Origin: Azolla caroliniana
Taxonomy: Eukaryota > Plantae > Polypodiophyta
NCBI GenBank assembly: GCA_043228905.1
Contig: JBHGNT010000011.1
Span: 18,910,001-18,974,000 of the forward strand
Direction of reading: 5' to 3'
Length of the DNA stretch: 64,000 bases
Below the pieces are notes generated by a model, which worked only from the letters and a program-made list of their open reading frames with translations, was not told where the DNA came from and searched no databases. Within the stretch, counting starts at the first letter, position 1; each line of letters starts with the position of its first letter. Below are positions 7,356 through 44,907 of the stretch, piece by piece. Both the position numbers and the translations under genes were made by a program.

Positions 7356-10300
7356 CTATGAGATTGAGTGCCTATGCCTAATGGGGGCTTTGGTTGGGGC
7401 CTTACTAAAATTAGTGTCAACACTTTCCACGACCTTCGATGGGGCAATAGTAGTCGTATTACTACTCATTGATACACCAGAGCTCCCTCCTCCTGAACTT
7501 TTGGATACATTTGAATCCAACTTATTAATGTTCCCTATACTTACACTAGAGGAGCTATAGATGGAGAGAATCTTGTTGAGAATTTTCTTGGGGTTGGAGA
7601 ATACATTGGTCTTTAAAGATGGCTTGCATGCCCGTAATACTCCTTGTACTGGGTCATTCATGATATTATTGGTGGGCCCATGATGATCTAGTTCAATACA
7701 ATTGGCATTAATGTTATGAGTATGCCCATGTGAGCTAGGGGGGTGTTCGCCTTCATTTTTAAGGCCTGCTTTCCTTGCCATTATTGTTGTCCTTGCTTGC
7801 TCAAAGAAGAGCACTTGCACCACCACTCTCAATGGAAGTCTCTCATTTTGTGCAACATGCATAGAAACTTCTGGGGATAGCTTCTTACAATCTATAAGTC
7901 CACAGACTCTCTTCTTCTCATTCTTCATAAGTTGGGGGTGCTCCTGCATCATTAAACAAGCATTTAGCAATTTGTATACATATTTTCATTTATGTCTAAA
8001 CTTTGTTGGTCTTAATCTCAAGTTCAATATCTCCCTCAACACAAGACAAGGTTAGGTTCAATCACAACAATCTCTCTCTCAAAAGGTTGCTATTTGTCCC
8101 TAGGATGAAGTCAATACCATTGGCATTCAAGGCTAACATTCCCTTATTGTGGGTATTTAGAAGTTCTAATTCACAGTCACACATGTAGGGTCAACATCTT
8201 AAACTACAATGTTGTGTACTTTACACTACAATCTACGATGCGACACCTTTCACATGAGTGACCATATATCAATGCTCCCCTATGTCAATTACCCAACAAG
8301 TCCTTAACACTCACAACATTTCCAAGTTGGACGAACCTACCCTCGCCTATTAAGTGCTCACACATATACTATATGTTTGAGCATATGAACCATATTAGCC
8401 ACATATAGCCACACCCTCTACAATACCAAAGGAGACTTTCCTCCAACACTTTTTTTCAATCCCACAGTCAATTTTGTGCCCACGAGAGAGCACGATAACA
8501 CATTGGTTGACATCTTCGCCATCATCTCTCTCCATATTCATTCTCCAAGGATGATAATAGGTTTATACATCTCATACACAACCCAACAATTGGTTAATTT
8601 AGTTAATTATTTATATATTATTTAATGATTCATGTGCTTGAAAATACCTTGAGATAGATGTCAATGGCTTTATATAGATCATCATGTACTGGACGAGCAA
8701 ATGCGGGGATCGTCTCTGCGAGAGTAACAAACTTTGCTAGGGGCAAGTTGGGATCTCGTGCGATTTCCGATAGGTAGCCATCGATGAGCTTCCCCACTTT
8801 GAGAACCGAACTCTCGGGGATAACATTCATGTCATTGGCCGTGCTAGTAGATCCATCTCCATCAATAGATCCATCGAATTCGAGGTAGTCATCGGAATCG
8901 TCCGTACCGACACGAGGGGGCATCGAAGTTGGGTTGCACAATCTTTCGGGTTCCTTGGGTTGTGACCGGGGGATTATGTGGTGATCGCTACTTTGGGACC
9001 TTGGGGAAGGCCGAAGTACCCCTAGTAAGAAATGCTCGAGGATATGGTGCACAAGGTCCACATCGTAGAGAGCATCATTTGCATAGGACAAGCAAGGGAT
9101 GAGCATGTCATGGAGTGAAGCCTCATGTAGTTGGAGACCAATCCTTCTAGCAAGCTCAAGTTTGGGGGTGTCCTCCACACCCAAGATGACACCTGCCTTG
9201 AGCAATCTCATCATGAAGCTACACGAGCATGATCCCTTCTCTTCGGGCATAAGGCGGACAATAGTCTCTAGCACGAGCTTATGGTCGAGGCCAGCACGAT
9301 GGGCGGCCGGACAACCCACATCCTGACCATAGAAACTACCACTGTCACTACTAGTACCAACCATGTGGGCTTGTTTAGAGATCCCAGGTAACCATCTGTA
9401 GGCATAGACCCGCAAGGCCTCACCAATCAATCTGCCACACATCCTTCCTTTGGCCTTGATGGCCACCATGACCCTATAGAAGAAGTCCACATCCAAGTCA
9501 CAAATGTCCTCCACCCACCAGTCAGTAGGGACAAGAAACCCTAACCCTAATTTCCTAGGGCTAGCACCTGCATTTTGAGAGGCATTGGTGGCCAGTTGGG
9601 AAGAATGGCTCCTGCTGCTCGGCCCGAATGCATCGGGCCGCCTTTTTCTCGAGTATGTGAAGGACCAGTCGACTATGGAGGGGTCGACCGATGTCTTGGA
9701 CGCGATCGCATCGATGCATCGGCTCACTAGTTTCAAGTCCTGTGGCCATGGCCCCAATGTGGTGGCCCTAGTGGACTTTAGGGCAAAGATGGAGTCTTTC
9801 CAGCTTTTCAAGACACTAGAGCTCAAGAAAACCTCTAGCTTGAACACCAGGTTTCCTTTCTCCATGTCTTCCTTCATCTCGAGGTACTCTGCCGCGCATC
9901 GGGCGATGAGGATGTTGTATGCATTTAGGGTTATGGCGATTCCGTAGCAGAACCTAGCGCAGAGGCCGAATGCCTCGGCTCCCCCGGGCATGTCCGTAAC
10001 CCGGACATGCCCAGCCCAGTGGCTGTTGTCCGGATCATCTTCCTCAGGAGCCATGGCAATGCCATCGCGATCTCGATCCCGGTCTCGATCACGCGCTGCC
10101 CCCAGCTTTTGCAATCTACCACATTTAGAGAGGATTGGGAACTGCAAAATTGTGGTCTGATTGAATGTGTACTCTCATTCATTCAAATAGTATGAATGGA
10201 TGGTTCAGCTAGTTGAATGTTAAAATGCTGGGCTAATAAGGGCCCTAATTCTATGATTAGTGAATAGATTAAGCTAATTATGGATATAATTACAACATAC

Positions 10301-23860: not shown

Positions 23861-24358
23861 TAACAAGCCATTAAAATTAATTATAGAATTAGAAATGTAA
23901 TATAATGATTAGCGAAAGAGTATATTTGCCTAATCATTAAATTTTTAGTTGATGAGAGAGCCCAAGCCTACTCACTTACTCAAATGAGGAACTTGAATAT
24001 GGTTGGGACTCGGAAGTCTGATCGTGCCTACCAAGCATAAATATGTAAAATTTGAAAAGAAGCAAGCATTACCTTTTCCTTTTCCTTTTACTCCCCACTC
24101 CCCCTCCCAATAAGTGTAAACATGTAAATTGCAAGTTCCTTCCATATATATATATATATATATATAGATTGATTGATTTATGAAGATTTTGTTATGAGAG
24201 AAAGACATATGGCTTACATATGAAGCCATCTTTCTCTCCTTCTTCATCTTTAGCTTTCCTCCAAGTTCTTCTCTCATCAGCCTAATTGGGAACCCTAATC
24301 TTGAGGCAAAACAAAACTGGAAATAAGAAGGGAGAAATAAAGGAAACCCTAATTGCAC

Positions 24359-25588
24359 ATGTCGCTACCGTATTCCGGGGGCGTGTCAGGGTTCCTACCG
24401 CCCGGGTTCCGCTTCCACCCGACCGACGAAGAATTGGTGTCCTTCTACCTACACCGCCAAGTGTCAGGGAAACACATCGAATCGAATGTGATCGCGGAGA
24501 TCGACCTCTACAAACACGATCCATGGGACCTCCCTCGTCTCTCGTGCCTCCCCACCAAAGACATGGAATGGTACTTCTTCAACCCCCCGGACAAGAAATA
24601 TCCGAGGGGGTCTCGCACCAACCGTGCCACTCGATCCGGTTACTGGAAGGCAACGGGCCGTGACCGCCGGATCTTCGCGAGCACTTCACCTAATCCGGTA
24701 GCCCGACCCAAGGCGGTGCATAAAGTAAAAATTGGTGAAGTATCATCTTTGACATGTAAGGATGGGGCTCATGATCATTCCATGGATTCTAGATGTAAGG
24801 AGCTTGATTATAATGATGAAAGATTGTCCATGGACCCTATCAAGGGTATCGAGAGCTCCGGCGATTTGATGACTAGTAGTAGTAGTAGTAGTAGTACGAA
24901 ACTCATCGGGCTTAAGAAAACACTGGTCTTCTATAGAGGGCGGGCACCGAATGGCGAGAGAACGGATTGGGTTATGCATGAATACCATCTTCTTGATCAT
25001 TCTCGGAATACTTCGGTGCCTAACAATTTGTTGCCTAGTGACACGGAACTAGGTGCTGCTTCTGGCTTTTGTTCGAGCATTAGTAATTATGTCGTGAAAG
25101 AACAATATGGTCGGGATTCGCTTGTTTTGTGCCGAGTCGTGAAGAAAAGTGGGCCTGGCCCAAGGTCCCGAACACGTCCGGAATCGATCTGTCATGGGGG
25201 GGCCGTGGTTGGTGGACCCATTCGCACACGCACCCGAAGAAAGATCGTGCGCTCGAGCTCGGGCTCAGGCCAGTCGGCATCGGCATTGGATTATAAATTT
25301 GTGCATGGGCAAGAAAAAGATGTTTTAGAAGAGGAGGAACTAGAAGAACTAGAGGGGGAAGAGGAGGAAGATTTAGAACAAGAAGAAGAATTAGGAGAAG
25401 AAGAAGAAGAAGAAGAAGAAGAAGAAGGAGGAGGAGATGGAGAAATATTGGAAGACAATGCTAATGAAAATGTGCTGAATGACTTTGTCGATTCACTCGA
25501 TATAATGCCGGTTCGAACTGATCTCTCGCTGCGTAGCGAATGCACTGCCTTGCCGAATTGGGGTCATTTCGAAAGTAATTACACATGA
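24359..25588 (+). CDS. NAC (NAM) domain transcription factor, intronless, acidic C-terminal region, ~409 aa
   Basis: First ATG at 24359. NAC subdomain motifs [75 protein letters not shown] and [14 protein letters not shown]. The KKSGPGP motif resembles the ANAC053/078/082-like group. Poly-Glu tract at ~25327-25430. Confidence 0.92.
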
Positions 25589-28434: not shown

Positions 28435-28580
28435 TAGCCGTCATGATGTTGTACTGAATGCAGCCCCCCAGTTCTGGGACTATTCGCACCAGCAAAAATG
28501 ATTTTAATGATTAGCAAATCCTTAATCCCCAATTTTAAGTTGCGGCATATCTCTGAAGATCTAAGCATGTAAAGAGCGTG

Positions 28581-30347
28581 ATGGTAGAAACATTATCTTT
28601 GAATGGGTCTTATAGTCCAACATGGATCCAAGATGATTTTGGCAAACATGCTTTTAAACATAAGGCCGGAGATGAGCCAAGAAATGGGTTTCTTCTCAAA
28701 CAACAAGAGTTTCAAGAACATCTTGGTCTTGTCGACTCAATCAAGGCATGTATCAAGCATAAGAACCTCTATAGAGGCAAACAAATACATGCTGAGGTCC
28801 TTCAAGAAGGTTTGCTCAATAGAAATGTATACCTTGGTACTGCTCTGATCACTATGTATGCAAGATTCGGCCAGTTATCAAAATCAAGAGAAGTGTTTGA
28901 TGAGCTTAGGGTAAGAAATGTTGTCTCTTTTAATGCCCTTATCACCGGATATGTTCGCCTTGGCCTTGCGCATGAAGCATTAGAATGCTTCCACGAAATG
29001 CGTACGCATGGGATCCCTCCCAATGATGTCACTTATATTTGCATTCTAAAAGCTTGTGGAGTCATCGGTTCGACCCTGGTTGGGGCTGAAATACATGCTG
29101 AGATTAGCAAATTAGGTTTAATTGGAAAGAATGCAATGGTTAGTACTGCACTGGTGGATATGTATGCTAAATGTGGGGATCTTGATAAAGCTCAAGAAGT
29201 GTTTGATGGGTTGAGTGAACGTGACCTTATCTCGTGGACTGCCCTTATCGCGGCATATGCATATCGTGGGAACGGACACATGGCTTTGGATCTGTTTGCA
29301 CGAATGCAAGAAGGGGGGATTTCCCCAAATCCAATCACTTTTGCTTGTGTTTTGAAAGCTTGTGGGCACATGAGGTTCATAAGCAAGGGGGAACAAATTC
29401 ATGCTCATATTGCCAACACAAGAGGGATCTTGGATTTGGGTGAACATAAAATCACTCTTGGGAATGCATTAGTGGATATGTATGCCAAATGTGGAATGAT
29501 CGGAAAAGCTCACAGAGCATTTGATCAACTTCCTGCAAAAGACTTGGTCTCTTGGAATATACTCGTGACTGCCTATGCTCACCATGAGCATGGTGACGAA
29601 GCCTTAAAATGCTTTGCCCAGATGCGAAAGGAGGGGTTCTTGCCGGATGTAGTCACATTCTCTAGTGTTTTGAAAGCTTGTAGTGATGTAGGATCGTTAG
29701 AAAAAGGAGAAGAAATACACATTGAGGTTAGGAAGCAAGGACTATTAGAAAATAGTACTGTGATTGGAAATGCATTGGTGGACATGTATGCAAAGTGCGG
29801 TATGCTGAGAAAAGCTCAAGAAGTGTTCGAGGGGCTTCCAGCTCCAGATGCCATCTCTTGGACGGCATTGATTACAGGATATGCCCAGCTCGGACGAGTG
29901 CGAAGTGCTTTTGATCAATTTAGAAAAATGCTAGCCCAAGGGATTATGCCAGACATCGTCACTTTTCTCGTTTTGCTCACAGCATGTAGCCATGCTGGCC
30001 TGGTTGAGGAAGGGCAAATGTATCTTGATTCTATGATGAACACTTATTGTCTCTCTCCTACAATTGAACACTTCACTTGTATGGTTGATCTATTTACCCG
30101 AGCTGGGCGCTTCGACAGAGCTATTGTTATTATCGAGAAGGTTCCACCTTGCGATTGTCTAGAATTGTGGTTGGTTCTCCTGGGGGCTTGTAGAAAATGG
30201 ATCAATGTAGAGCTTGGGAGGTGGGCTTTCAAGAACTCGGTTCAATTAAATGAAAACAATGGATCTCTCTATGTTTGCATGAGTGATATTTATGCAGCTG
30301 CCGGCATGCAAGAAGAAATTGCCAAAATTGAAGCGTTAAGAATGTAG
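28581..30347 (+). CDS. PLS-class pentatricopeptide repeat protein with E domain and no DYW (probable organellar RNA-editing specificity factor), ~588 aa
   Basis: Single-exon ORF. Repeated ALVDMYAKCG / VSW.ALI..YA / TF..VLKAC motifs, then VTFLVLLTACSHAGLVEEG, PTIEHFTCMVDLFTRAG and the E-domain WLVLLGACRKW..VELG...YVCMSDIYAAAG. The start is uncertain (ATG 28581 used). Confidence 0.92.
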   Translation: MVETLSLNGSYSPTWIQDDFGKHAFKHKAGDEPRNGFLLKQQEFQEHLGLVDSIKACIKHKNLYRGKQIHAEVLQEGLLNRNVYLGTALITMYARFGQLSKSREVFDELRVRNVVSFNALITGYVRLGLAHEALECFHEMRTHGIPPNDVTYICILKACGVIGSTLVGAEIHAEISKLGLIGKNAMVSTALVDMYAKCGDLDKAQEVFDGLSERDLISWTALIAAYAYRGNGHMALDLFARMQEGGISPNPITFACVLKACGHMRFISKGEQIHAHIANTRGILDLGEHKITLGNALVDMYAKCGMIGKAHRAFDQLPAKDLVSWNILVTAYAHHEHGDEALKCFAQMRKEGFLPDVVTFSSVLKACSDVGSLEKGEEIHIEVRKQGLLENSTVIGNALVDMYAKCGMLRKAQEVFEGLPAPDAISWTALITGYAQLGRVRSAFDQFRKMLAQGIMPDIVTFLVLLTACSHAGLVEEGQMYLDSMMNTYCLSPTIEHFTCMVDLFTRAGRFDRAIVIIEKVPPCDCLELWLVLLGACRKWINVELGRWAFKNSVQLNENNGSLYVCMSDIYAAAGMQEEIAKIEALRM

Positions 30348-38600: not shown

Positions 38601-40423
38601 AGATCCATGATAATGCTCTTAATGCATGAGATGGCTTTACAATTGGTGATGGTTCTTGAGATGGTTTTACTAGCATGAAGTGCATAAGTACTATGTATAG
38701 GATGAGTGGTGGTGGGCCATGGTTTTTTATGTTGGTTGGTGTAGTGGATTGGCGCAATGATGTACACTGATTACAGTTGGATGTTCTTAGTTTCTTGGAC
38801 ATGTCAAGAAATGATCTCCATAATCTGGTGCTGGTATGGTCCATGGTCCTTGTATCCCTAGGTATGCAAAGCGCTTGTCCTGTTTTGATCTCTATCTGGT
38901 GGTTGGAAACTCTGAGTTGCCCTATTGCTTTGCAGGCACTATGGGGCCTGTAGATGTCCATGCACCTTGGTCTCTGTATGATTCCATCCATGAGAAAGCA
39001 GCTCATAATCTCATCTTTGTGGGAAAAAGGCATTCTTGGTGTGATCCATGTCTTTTGGCTATAGAGTTTCCATAGATCTTGCCACAATACCTTGTTCCTT
39101 TCTTCATGTTGTAGGATTGTAGATTATCTTCTTGATTTCAAGACGATTGTTGGACCTCATTGTTACTTATGAGTGCCACAATCCTCCTTCCCCTTTTGTT
39201 GTCACCATTTCCTTCAATTGTTTCAATGCCTTACGCTGTACTTCTTTAAGGTGGCATAAATTTTCACCTGGTAGGTAAGGTTCACTGTTTGTAATAATGC
39301 TTCTACCAGTACAGGAGGGTGGAGCCCACTAGTGAAGGAGAACGAGAGTGAGAAAAAGAAAGAATGATATTTGAACGGCCTCTGAATCAAATCATTTCTA
39401 CAAATATGGGTGAATTCATGCTATCCATACTGAAACAAAAATAAAAGCTCTAGGTTTCTATAAGCTCTTTGATTATGATCTTAACGCATTTGGTTGGATG
39501 ATTTTGGAGATGATTTACAAGCATACACTGTAACTAATATGTATGGTATTTGGGTTTAGAGAAAGAGATAGGAGGTGAGATATAATTTGCATGATTTGTA
39601 GGCAAAGAAACTATCCACCAATTGTATGGCACAAGAGTTGCTGTTTTAGCTGGTGACTTCATGTTTGCTCAATCATCCTGGTATCTCGCATGTATGGAGA
39701 ATCTTCAGGTTATCAAGCTCATCAGTCAGGTAAAATTCCGTAGAAATCTAGAGCTTCATCTATAAAGAATTGAGGCAGTAATAGAATGCTCGAGGTATAA
39801 AAAAATATAAGAATGCTTTTTTGGGGATATACTGAGAATGCATGAGGTAATATTCAGATGCTTTCATTGTGCAGGTTATAAAAGACTTAGCCAGTGGTGA
39901 AATAAAGCAAGCCTCGAGCCTTTTCGATTGCGATACGACACTCGAGCAATATTTGGATAAGAGCTACTATAAGACAGCATCTCTTATTGCTGCGAGCACA
40001 TGTTCGGCAGCTATATTCAGTGGGGTCAAACCAGATGTTTGTGACAAGATGTTTAGATATGGATTGAACCTTGGTTTGGCTTTCCAAATTGTGGATGACA
40101 TATTGGATTTCACCCAATCAACTGAGGAACTTGGGAAGCCTGCTGGGAGTGATCTCTCTAAAGGGAACCTTACTGCTCCTGTCTTGTTCTCCTTAAAAGA
40201 AGACGAGGAATTGAGAAGGATTATTGAGTCTGAATTCATTGATGAAGGATCGCTAGACGTGGCTATTGCACGCGTTCGGCAAGGTAAAGGGTTGGATAAA
40301 TCTCGTGCACTCGCAAAGGAGAAGGGCAATGAGGCCAAATCTTGTCTTCAATGCCTTTCTCATGGACCTTACAGATCAAGCCTTGAAGGAATGGTAGATT
40401 ATGTATTGGAACGTCTATTCTAG
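35632..40423 (+). CDS. SPS: Plastid solanesyl diphosphate synthase (trans-long-chain prenyl diphosphate synthase), 6 exons, ~430 aa
   Basis: Exons 35632-35863, 36758-36909, 37332-37459, 37551-37654, 39602-39729 and 39875-40423 (GT-AG, 1293 nt, in frame). Ser-rich transit peptide, GGKRMRP, FARM ([12 protein letters not shown]), [37 protein letters not shown] ([10 protein letters not shown]) and GKPAGSDL. Confidence 0.95.
38760..39110 (-). mobile_element. LINE C-terminal relic in SPS intron 4, antisense to the gene
   Basis: [18 protein letters not shown] resembles the LRTSSHQLQIEVGR motif of the 32824-34304 element. It is preceded by TWITPRMP...MDG.IQRP..MD. Confidence 0.7.
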
Positions 40424-41950: not shown

Positions 41951-42633
41951 TCAGTTCACCTACCAGTTTTCTCTCTTCTAGAGTTTATCCATGAGCATCA
42001 TAGACAAGTAAAATAGACATGTCTGTGAAGATGCAGATTACTCATACCTGGAATGAAAGATCTTTCAGTACATGATGAAATGACATTTATCTAAACATAT
42101 ATGGAAAGATTGACCACTACAGAGGAGAGAAGATCCTTCAGGACATGATCTGTGGCAATGAGGCAAGCAAGAATGGCTCTGAATTTGTCAACACTGTTTA
42201 AGAATGCTGTGATGTGGTTATCATCGCAAAGTCATGAGTTCAGATATATTCCTTCAGATATATTCCTCCATTCACTCCATTCATTTGGCACTGAAGCACA
42301 TAAATGTTTACAAATGTACCCAAACACCCAGCGGAAGTAATTATCATCTCATAAGAAGTTCAAAGATACAATGAAAGACCCGCATTGCAATATAAAAGAA
42401 GGTAACAAAACAGAAATTTGCTCATTTGTATTCAAATAGATTCGTGTAGGATTACATTTATATAGGGAAGGGTACAAGCATAGTGTGTTGTTGTAAACAA
42501 GAGAGCAAAATCCATATGATGCCAACTCTCCAGTCTCTCATTCAAATACATATACAACCGATGATGTAGCACATGTCTACACAGGCATTTCTAAGAACTC
42601 GATAATGTGAAACAGACAAAAACTTTGAAAGAT

Positions 42634-44215
42634 CTAGGGTTTATACAACACAGTTTTCCCCACATTCAATATGCTTTCATCAAAGAATTTCACCTGCACA
42701 ATAACAAGCCATCAGAAGATTTATTGTCTGTAGATGCACATCATTTTCTTCACAATCAATTGGATTATGTATATCATTATTTCTAGATCAACAGAATTCT
42801 CGGAAAATAGTAAAAAACTTGAGATTACCTCAAAGGGAGGAACAAATTTCAGCTTGATATTAGTAAACTTGGCTCCATAGAAGCCATGTTTCTTCTTTGC
42901 ACCCACACTCGTACCACCAATTTTCAGTATAACTGAGCGCATTCCCTGTTGTAAAGAGAGAACATTAGACAAATTTATATAAACAGACTCAAAAAACTAT
43001 AGACAGTAAGCACAAGTCTTTAGTTCATAACAACTTACAGCAGGATAACCCTTTATGATCGCTTTTAATTCCCTCCACTCTCCAGGCACTGTATGAATTT
43101 CCCCAGAGTCCCTGTTCAAGATCACAGATATGTCAGGTAAAGAAAACAATATTACAAACCATATAAAATCCTAAACTTCAAAATCCCTAATGTCCACATC
43201 ATTTAATCCTAGCACAAGTATATATTAGTCAGTACATAAGTAAACCTTATGATAGTCCAGATACCATTAACCATGAATGCACTCATCGATAGGATATTCA
43301 AGCTTCCACTCTGTATGCTAAATCATGAAACTCGCACCTAACTAAACTACAAGTTATAGAAAATTAAATATTAAACTCCTAGATCACCATACATAAACCC
43401 TAGGCAACAAGATACCCTAATCCACAGATCACTACATACCCTAGAAAGATTCATTAAGCACTACAACACTTCATCACTCACAACAAAAATATGATATAAT
43501 TGATGTGGTCAAAAGAAGACTCTAACCAGAAGAGGATGCTATTTTTGAGGTCATCACGGATCAAGACCTGGACCTTGACCTTGCTTTCCACCCCTTGCAC
43601 GCCCGAGAACATAGCAGACACGAGCAAAGGTGGGGACGAGTCGAGGAACTTCTTCGAGAACATCGGGAAACTGATGCATTGTTGGACTTTTCCCCAGTCA
43701 TAGGATGTGGCAATGACAGGTTTGGTCTCGGAGCCGGGGCAGGGCGGGCACCCGACAGGCGGGCACTCTCTCATGACACCATCGCCACCGCCGCGCTGGA
43801 AGACCGAACCACCCTCAACTGCCCAGAAGCTATATGTGTGCGTGTCATCATGATCATCGTCTAGGGAAGGGATCCGATCTAAGAGGAGCCGATGTTTCGG
43901 CTCCCATGGCGACAGCGTCTGGTGCTTCATGGATTCCATGTCCATGTGCAGGACTCGCCCAAAATTTGGGCACGCAACCAAATTCTGCCCAAAGATTTGC
44001 CCAAACAGCGACTTCCACCCCAGCAACGACCTCATGCCATCTGTCAGCGAGAGGCCCGCGGATTGGCTGAGGTGCTGCCACGTGGGCGGGTCCGCCGCCA
44101 CGTCACGCCACGACCGGCAAACCAACGCACATGACCCTGCAATCTGATGTGTTGGCAGAAGCTTGAATATCTCTGTGTACACCGCGTCGGGCAGCTCTTC
44201 TATGGTGAAGCCCAT
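42634..44215 (-). CDS. F-box protein with C-terminal FBA (F-box-associated, galactose-binding-like) domain of FBXO2/6/44 type, 4 exons, ~312 aa
   Basis: Exons 44215-43527, 43111-43039, 42945-42829 and 42693-42634 (GT-AG, 939 nt, in frame). N-terminal F-box (ELPDAVYTEIFKLLP...ALVCRSWRDV...W). FBA-like motifs GQNLVACP, GGDG..ECPPVG, ATSYDWGKVQQ, FLDSSP, W.ELKAIIKGYPAGMRSV...GG and GFYGAKFTN. The last exon is the least certain. Confidence 0.85.
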
Positions 44216-44454
44216 AATTTGGAGACGATGGGGAGATAACAGGAGAGGGCGAAGAAGGGAGAGAGCGAGGCAGGAAGAACCCTAATTCTCAGAAGGAAAA
44301 AGGCATTAAAAGAAAGAAGCTCTCTAAGTGACGATCTGTGCGGCGTGCCTCTGTTTAGCTTTTAAACAGATAAGCCTCCATCTCTGTTCTGTGCTACGTC
44401 CTGTATGTTGTGATTTGGTGGAAAACAAGAACCCTAGAATCGCCTCTATATATA

Positions 44455-44488: not shown

Positions 44489-44907
44489 TTATGGAGATTT
44501 GGAAACTCTGTTTAATCAGTCTCTCAGCTCTTCTTCTTCTGATTCTTCTGATCTTCTGATCTTCTTCTTCTTCTGATCTTCTGTGTGCAGCTGCTTCTTC
44601 TTCGCATCTGGAGCCCAGAAGATTGAAATTCGGCCCCCATTTTTGTAGTGTCTGTGGATTGGAAGCGGGAAAACAAAAAAAAGAAAGGGAGGAAGAAAAC
44701 AAACAAATTTTGGTCTCATGTTTTCTCTCTCTCTCTCTCTCTCTCTCTTTTCTGAAAATTTCAAAAGCCCGCCCCAAAAACATAACACATACAAAACAGA
44801 GTTTCAAATTTTAAAAATACACACAATAAAACAAAAGAGCATATTATTATGTCCCACAAAGCAGAAGAAGAAGAAGAAGAAGAAGAAGAAGAAGAAGAAG
44901 AAAGAAG
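44455..44907. repeat. Microsatellite cluster (TCTG)n, (CT)n and (GAA)n in the upstream/5'UTR region of the F-box gene
   Basis: Direct inspection: ~44456-44488, ~44724-44748 and ~44863-44907. Confidence 0.9.

Follow-up and report, generated by a model that had tools for sequence, protein, structure and literature searches.

What is a gene resembling the animal FBXO2/6/44 receptors doing in the genome of a fern, and does its product still recognise the sugar that those receptors bind? The gene lies in a stretch of 64,000 nucleotides of the Azolla caroliniana contig JBHGNT010000011.1 (positions 18,910,001 to 18,974,000, forward strand), called here the window. A preliminary description, made from the letters of this stretch, had proposed an animal-type Fbs lectin gene in a plant, perhaps undescribed, and either ancient and lost in seed plants or acquired horizontally. 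Our analyses show that this fern gene encodes a spliced F-box plus FBA (PF04300) protein of the FBXO2/6/44 family. Judging from the sequences compared, it represents an old eukaryotic receptor that seems intact in green algae and underwent its remodelling no later than the origin of land plants; no copy was found in flowering plants.

The gene occupies four exons on the minus strand (window 44215-42634), with a coding sequence of 939 nt for 312 amino acids and a stop codon (Table 1). Its splicing can be followed in contigs of public sequencing runs, whose kinds (RNA or DNA) are our guesses. All three introns are exactly skipped in contigs of four out of four runs of a second set, which carries three organism codes; in the first set, introns 1 and 2 are left out in the contig of one run of four (X8), which stops in a loose end of 10 letters that fit exon 4. 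This exact skipping implies spliced RNA, and the contigs of the DNA-like runs X1 and X6 continue through the introns. The spliced 312-residue protein initially proposed is therefore upheld, with junction support for exons 2 to 4. Between run X8 and the window there are 11 coding differences, eight of them synonymous. Further upstream on the minus strand, an ATG-started frame of ~38 codons lies in a purine-rich repeat (window about 44530-44650) and an 8-codon frame lies near 44385; both are possible upstream ORFs if the leader extends there.

Table 1. Parts of the F-box/FBA gene and of its product, and neighbouring genes, with their positions in the window.
Feature	Window positions	Strand	Basis or remark
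Exon 1	43527..44215	-	689 nt, codons 1-230; F-box, linker, land-plant insert, first part of the FBA beta-sandwich
Intron 1	43112..43526	-	415 nt, GT..AG, within Trp230; skipped in contigs of runs X8, X9, X11, X18, X20
Exon 2	43039..43111	-	73 nt; exon model and run contigs
Intron 2	42946..43038	-	93 nt, GT..AG; skipped in contigs of runs X8, X9, X11, X18, X20
Exon 3	42829..42945	-	117 nt, codons 255-293; last sandwich strands
Intron 3	42694..42828	-	135 nt, GT..AG; skipped in 4/4 runs of the second contig set
Exon 4, coding part	42634..42693	-	19 codons and TAG
3' untranslated region, reaching at least 42421	42421..42633	-	joined to exon 4 in the spliced X11 contig
Probable 5' untranslated region	44216..44436	-	X8 contig 44237-44436, separate from the coding contig
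F-box domain, residues 5-51 (predicted SKP1-binding part)	44063..44203	-	PF12937, PF00646
Insert of ~45 residues, around residues 84-130	43826..43966	-	land plants and Closterium; absent from the animal proteins measured
W131-G146 loop with FQRGG	43778..43825	-	candidate new binding surface
Tyr172, equivalent of Fbs1 Phe177, sole kept pocket aromatic	43700..43702	-	alignment
S267-H274 loop, equivalent of the Fbs1 beta9-beta10 loop; Ser for conserved Asp	42886..42909	-	alignment
NPH3-family gene	7356-10174	-	domain search
NAC transcription factor gene (PF02365)	24353-25588	+	single long frame
PPR gene with E motif	28557-30347	+	domain search
Polyprenyl synthase gene	39851-40423	+	domain search

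Contamination was rejected because the gene has, on its contig (C11), NPH3, NAC, PPR and polyprenyl synthase genes as neighbours, all of them usual in plants, and because its product groups with ferns. The NAC gene has an insert within its NAC domain and, in addition, a long tract of glutamates. The Azolla genome holds one intact copy of the F-box/FBA gene and two short, stop-containing F-box fragments, as well as six matches to SKP1 genes. The fragments are dispersed (L002, G000:C11:5809477-5809584; L003, G000:C11:8115826-8115909), share 81-82% DNA identity with the gene start and some upstream sequence, and have the appearance of duplicated pseudogene pieces, each with TGA in place of the Cys29 codon.

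The F-box was recognised by both PF12937 (E 1.5e-10, 41.1 bits, cut-off 24.3) and PF00646 (E 2.6e-7, above cut-off). PF04300 was not matched in the Pfam search by exon 1 alone or by the other single exons because the FBA domain is spread across all four, and the best PDB matches of exon 1 (FBXO2, FBXO44 and FBXO6) were obtained mostly via the F-box. For the spliced protein, a profile built from 50 non-green FBA domains gave 51.8 bits, and for 500 shuffled controls at most 4.6 bits (316 of the 500 were reported); this test leans towards a match since its 50 rows had been found with a plant profile. The PF04300 cut-off was passed by four of seven full-length relatives. The closest of them, P0001 (74% identical over 307 residues), scored 39.8 bits for a cut-off of 32.4 and matched the sugar-binding domain of Fbs1, taken by itself, at E 2e-10; the Adiantum and Ceratopteris relatives remained under the cut-off, at 27-28 bits. 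A PF04300 search of the Azolla genome gave no match anywhere, its controls being likewise unmatched.

Evidence on the fold comes from an AlphaFold2 model of P0001 (pLDDT 88.5), this 74% identical relative standing in for the window protein. The top 10 Foldseek rows obtained with it were all Fbs1, Fbs2 or FBXO44 (E 1.5e-17 to 2E31), and in a search of 48,161 chains the model superposed on the Fbs1 domain 2E33 with a Z of 19.7 (2.1 Å over 169 residues, 26% identity), the next unrelated fold having a Z of 11.9. Its other fold neighbours were CBM61, CBM16, CBM4 and CBM22. In agreement with the proposed FBXO2/6/44 homology and galactose-binding-like fold, profile, relatives and model thus all point to the Fbs family. 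The short motif pairs on which that proposal was built are colinear in the alignment with the non-green FBA profile, a comparison resting on fetched sequences.

The sugar pocket tells a different story from the fold. Structural and mutagenesis work has identified Phe177, Tyr279 and Trp280 as residues that Fbs1 cannot do without in binding N-glycans (PMC4603797). We examined the equivalent positions in 69 rows (89 with both domains minus 20 near-duplicates), one unplaced row being excluded from the counts and the others comprising 14 land-plant, 4 green-algal and 50 other rows; owing to their relatedness, the 14 from land plants amount to roughly a single event. The Phe177 position is aromatic in all 14 land-plant rows and the neighbouring Trp174 is invariant among them. 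At the positions of Tyr279 and Trp280, by contrast, the window protein has a basic, non-aromatic loop. The Trp280 equivalent is a tryptophan in 0/14 land-plant, 4/4 green-algal and 46/50 other rows, and the aspartate three residues before the pair is replaced by serine in 14/14 land-plant rows, being kept in 4/4 algal and 50/50 other ones. A second aspartate, in the beta5-beta6 loop, is retained in 3/14, 3/4 and 48/50 rows, respectively. The pair is missing whichever way a two-residue loop insertion is aligned (Ala270/Lys271 or Lys272/Lys273), and an alignment-free motif check found an aromatic pair in none of the 14 land-plant rows, three of the four algal rows and 43 of the 50 others. The Selaginella protein Selmo1|410607 is also devoid of it, and the former pocket loop differs from one land plant to another, with no conserved aromatic residue. 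As read from these sequences, the Tyr279/Trp280 pocket residues are lost in every land-plant protein examined. The label of Fbs lectin consequently fits the land-plant protein by family and fold and becomes doubtful as to sugar binding, since two of the three pocket residues are missing.

The same land-plant proteins also carry additions. The distance between the anchors flanking the insert is 61 residues in the window protein and 58 in Closterium, as opposed to 16 in the oyster and bovine proteins; in the P0001 model the insert forms a helix and short strands (pLDDT 77-95). In the loop that follows, G135, G136, F139, Q140, R141 and G142 (G-G-x-x-F-Q-R-G) are invariant in 14/14 land-plant rows, and each is found in at most 8% of the 50 non-green rows. 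The model has a pLDDT under 50 at residues 136-143 of this FQRGG loop, which may be a mere effect of the mixed alignment. Closterium, whose partial records end before the last loop, possesses the insert along with a closely similar FQRGG loop and has lost the beta5-beta6 motif; the FQRGG loop is absent from Klebsormidium. This distribution of the FQRGG loop dates the remodelling to the stem lineage shared by Zygnematophyceae and land plants. Land plants and Klebsormidium also have a Cys/Pro-rich stretch at residues 151-160 (window 43736-43765), in which Cys156 is invariant across the 14 land-plant rows; a redox or metal role is possible.

Comparison with characterised proteins makes these changes more explicit. 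The fern protein shares with Fbs1/FBXO2 and Fbs2/FBXO6, the SCF receptors for high-mannose N-glycans (PDB 2E31, 2E33, 8ZUH), an N-terminal F-box, a linker and the PF04300 sandwich, and it keeps the Phe177 equivalent, but it lacks the equivalents of Tyr279 and Trp280 and the flanking Asp residues and has, in addition to the insert, the FQRGG loop and the Cys/Pro-rich stretch, a C-terminal tail of 20 residues. Its closest functional analogue, under the protein-ligand reading favoured below, would be FBXO44/FBG3 (PDB 3WSO), an F-box protein whose FBA domain recognises a peptide degron and shows no detectable sugar binding. In FBXO44, Tyr, Tyr and Trp are all in place and it is the loop geometry that prevents binding, whereas in the plant protein residues themselves were lost. 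The two losses have separate origins. The Physcomitrium proteins XP_024360533.1 (Pp_F0142, 54% identical to the window protein) and Pp_F0149, together with the Selaginella protein, belong to the same clade as the fern one and have the same insert and the same missing pair. The uncharacterised proteins of Klebsormidium (GAQ82215.1) and Coccomyxa (I0ZAL3), F-box/FBA orthologues according to the tree, keep a Phe-Trp pair and both Asp residues and are without the FQRGG loop, the Phe177 position of Klebsormidium aligning to Cys. The predicted structure of the Klebsormidium protein superposes on Fbs1 with a Z of 20.2 (2.1 Å, 168 residues). The retention of pocket residues in algae is nevertheless no proof of sugar binding because FBXO44 keeps all three and binds none. 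F-box/Nictaba (PP2) lectins and FBA_1/FBA_3 proteins are plant F-box proteins too, with confusable names, but Pfam matched neither PP2/Nictaba nor FBA_1 (PF07734) nor FBA_3 (PF08268) in the window exons or the relatives, and Nictaba is unlike Fbs1 in both fold and sugar recognition.

Named orthologues were found in Adiantum (two species), Ceratopteris, Diphasiastrum, Ceratodon, Physcomitrium, Sphagnum and Calypogeia, that is, in ferns, lycophytes, mosses and a liverwort, which bears out the suggested distribution in seed-free plants. The nearest named relatives of the window protein are ferns, and fern proteins share 48-54% identity with those of a moss or lycophyte. A HMMER search of 1.84 billion representatives yielded 496 matches at E 0.001, the best 150 of which were listed; among these 150, of which 20 were looked up by name and several were nameless, were Klebsormidium, two partial Closterium records, Coccomyxa, Stichococcus, the amoebozoan Gocevia, molluscs and mammals. 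None of the orthologues named, whether by the word-based searches or within the best 150 of the 496 HMMER matches, belongs to a seed plant. The word-based search was leaky: one round returned four proteins and missed members of its own alignment, and the Selaginella orthologue was never listed. Its blanks are weak evidence because known orthologues were missed, and we therefore turned to an independent source, the supplementary file 2 of Hua et al. 2011 (PMC3030570), containing F-box proteins of 15 angiosperms, Physcomitrella, Selaginella and Chlamydomonas. In the first 4.0 million characters of the file, which include the maize rows and then non-plant rows, with long lines covered to ~400 letters, FQRGG occurs at least three times (two moss genes and one unrelated maize protein) and RGGGDG at least four times (both of these moss genes, a gene of Selaginella and an unrelated protein of maize). 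WAGHYG, the canonical motif, occurs there at least five times, all listed occurrences coming after the plant section. These are exact-motif tests, which a diverged copy would escape. Homologue searches, HMMER listing and motif scan, each within its scope, revealed no angiosperm orthologue, and we hold it very probable that the gene is absent from flowering plants.

How did ferns come to possess this gene? The tree, unrooted and built from 48 chosen rows, some of the longer ones included and most of the non-green ones nameless, groups the land plants and two unnamed rows with a support of 98/96; Klebsormidium joins them to form the streptophytes (98/88), four chlorophyte-type rows, two of them named, form another group (99/94), and a split with a support of 100/99 separates all of these, together with one unnamed long row, from the 31 rows of animal type or from amoebozoans. 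Transfer from an animal into ferns or early land plants could be suspected from the best PDB and Atlas matches, which are animal, the FBA clusters among the displayed Atlas rows being exclusively animal-dominated, but this reflects the content of those collections. Such a transfer is highly improbable in view of the orthologues in Coccomyxa, Stichococcus, Klebsormidium and Closterium, the single streptophyte group and the green split, and forcing the streptophyte rows with the bovine FBXO2 clade, the one donor group tested and picked after the tree was seen, was rejected by the AU test (p 0.0016). Because the orthologues span chlorophytes, Klebsormidium and Closterium up to ferns, and because of this rejection, the horizontal acquisition proposed as one option is unsupported, and the simplest account is vertical inheritance along the green lineage. 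Moss read-through gene calls break at the same tryptophan as intron 1. The alternative option of an ancient gene lost in seed plants gains green-algal ancestry and a lack of detected flowering-plant orthologues; flowering plants appear to have lost the gene later. The term animal-type holds for the homology with FBXO2/6/44 and is too narrow otherwise, since an amoebozoan and green algae have the canonical form. The seed-free distribution also led us to consider a link with flagellated sperm; we dropped it, as Closterium, which has the remodelled gene in its partial records, belongs to a class without flagella (Zygnematophyceae).

As to function, our sequence comparisons make us lean towards an SCF substrate receptor that, devoid of the Tyr-Trp sugar pair, probably recognises a protein surface instead of the high-mannose N-glycan core. 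Its F-box would bind SKP1 and hence join CUL1-RBX1, the remodelled loops of the sandwich would engage a conserved substrate, or a small number of them, in the cytosol or nucleus, and these would be ubiquitinated and then degraded. A precedent for peptide binding by an FBA domain is that of FBXO44 with the RGS2 degron (PMC12554172). Constraint on the gene is indicated by the conservation between ferns and mosses or lycophytes, the single intact copy and the prevalence of synonymous differences in X8. The high-mannose N-glycoprotein receptor in ERAD envisaged by the preliminary description is quite improbable: the architecture and fold are the same and algal orthologues retain pocket residues, but two of the three essential residues are gone under either alignment and the flanking Asp residues are lost in land plants. 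Less improbable, although still unlikely, is a lectin-type SCF receptor whose rebuilt loops bind some other carbohydrate, e.g., a plant-type O-glycan or a wall-derived glycan in the cytosol. A different sugar may be the ligand because Tyr172 and Trp174, the former position aromatic and the latter residue invariant in 14/14 land-plant rows, are kept in a fold of the carbohydrate-binding module type, close to CBM families. The FQRGG loop moreover offers conserved Phe, Gln and Arg, residue types employed in sugar binding. However, the old pocket loop varies among land plants and has no conserved aromatic, and a common fold says nothing about function. An SKP1-bound adaptor or chaperone acting outside a full SCF is improbable as well, in spite of inner-ear Fbs1 being a heterodimer with SKP1 and not an SCF (PMC6389600); no pointer to it exists in the sequence and SCF is the default for F-box proteins. 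We tentatively propose, at somewhat less than even confidence, that an ancient eukaryotic glycan-sensing Fbs receptor, its pocket residues kept in green algae, was rewired to a new ligand on the stem of Zygnematophyceae and land plants, through loss of the Tyr-Trp pocket and gain of the insert and FQRGG loop, and that it now controls a conserved degradation step of seed-free plants alone, discarded by flowering plants.

To what extent is this gene undescribed, as had been suggested? No paper on a plant Fbs clade was found among the listed matches in the open-access literature (subscription journals lay outside its scope), nor any function for the moss and Selaginella orthologues, which in that literature are only catalogued or automatically named. 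RefSeq, however, already labels the Physcomitrium orthologue 'F-box only protein 2-like'. A 2019 review considers Fbs proteins to be vertebrate-only, and in the portions available of the respective sources, a paper on NCCRP1 covers vertebrates only (PMC3210139), a paper on plant lectin evolution mentions FBA and Fbs nowhere (PMC6362431), a cotton survey uses PF04300 as a search term only (PMC6921459), a plant survey merges PF04300 with the unrelated PF08268 (PMC3719486) and Hua et al. have the moss and Selaginella sequences in a supplement with no discussion in the main text (PMC3030570). The single Coccomyxa 'FBA' protein rooting the plant FBA tree of PMC3719486 may be I0ZAL3 (P0055), in which case the root belongs to a different domain family.

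Our results show that F-box/FBA proteins with the pocket residues exist in molluscs, in an amoebozoan and in green algae, whereas bryophytes, lycophytes and ferns keep the remodelled form. Klebsormidium and a moss or fern therefore make up a testable before-and-after pair for a ligand change in a ubiquitin-ligase receptor near the origin of land plants, and point to a degradation step beyond the reach of Arabidopsis-centred work. Knockouts are feasible in Physcomitrium, which has two genes, and in Ceratopteris.

The FBA domain also occurs in other architectures. Six animal-like proteins (P0019, P0022, P0025, P0028, P0039 and P0059) contain two to several tandem FBA domains. Three unnamed, bacterial- and secreted-looking proteins (P0083, P0018 and P0109) have FBA domains without an F-box; P0083 (PF04300 E 8e-35) has a signal-like start and a PEP-CTERM-like end, and both P0083 and P0109 keep the aromatic-Trp pair, a hint that the FBA domain may be older than its fusion to the F-box.
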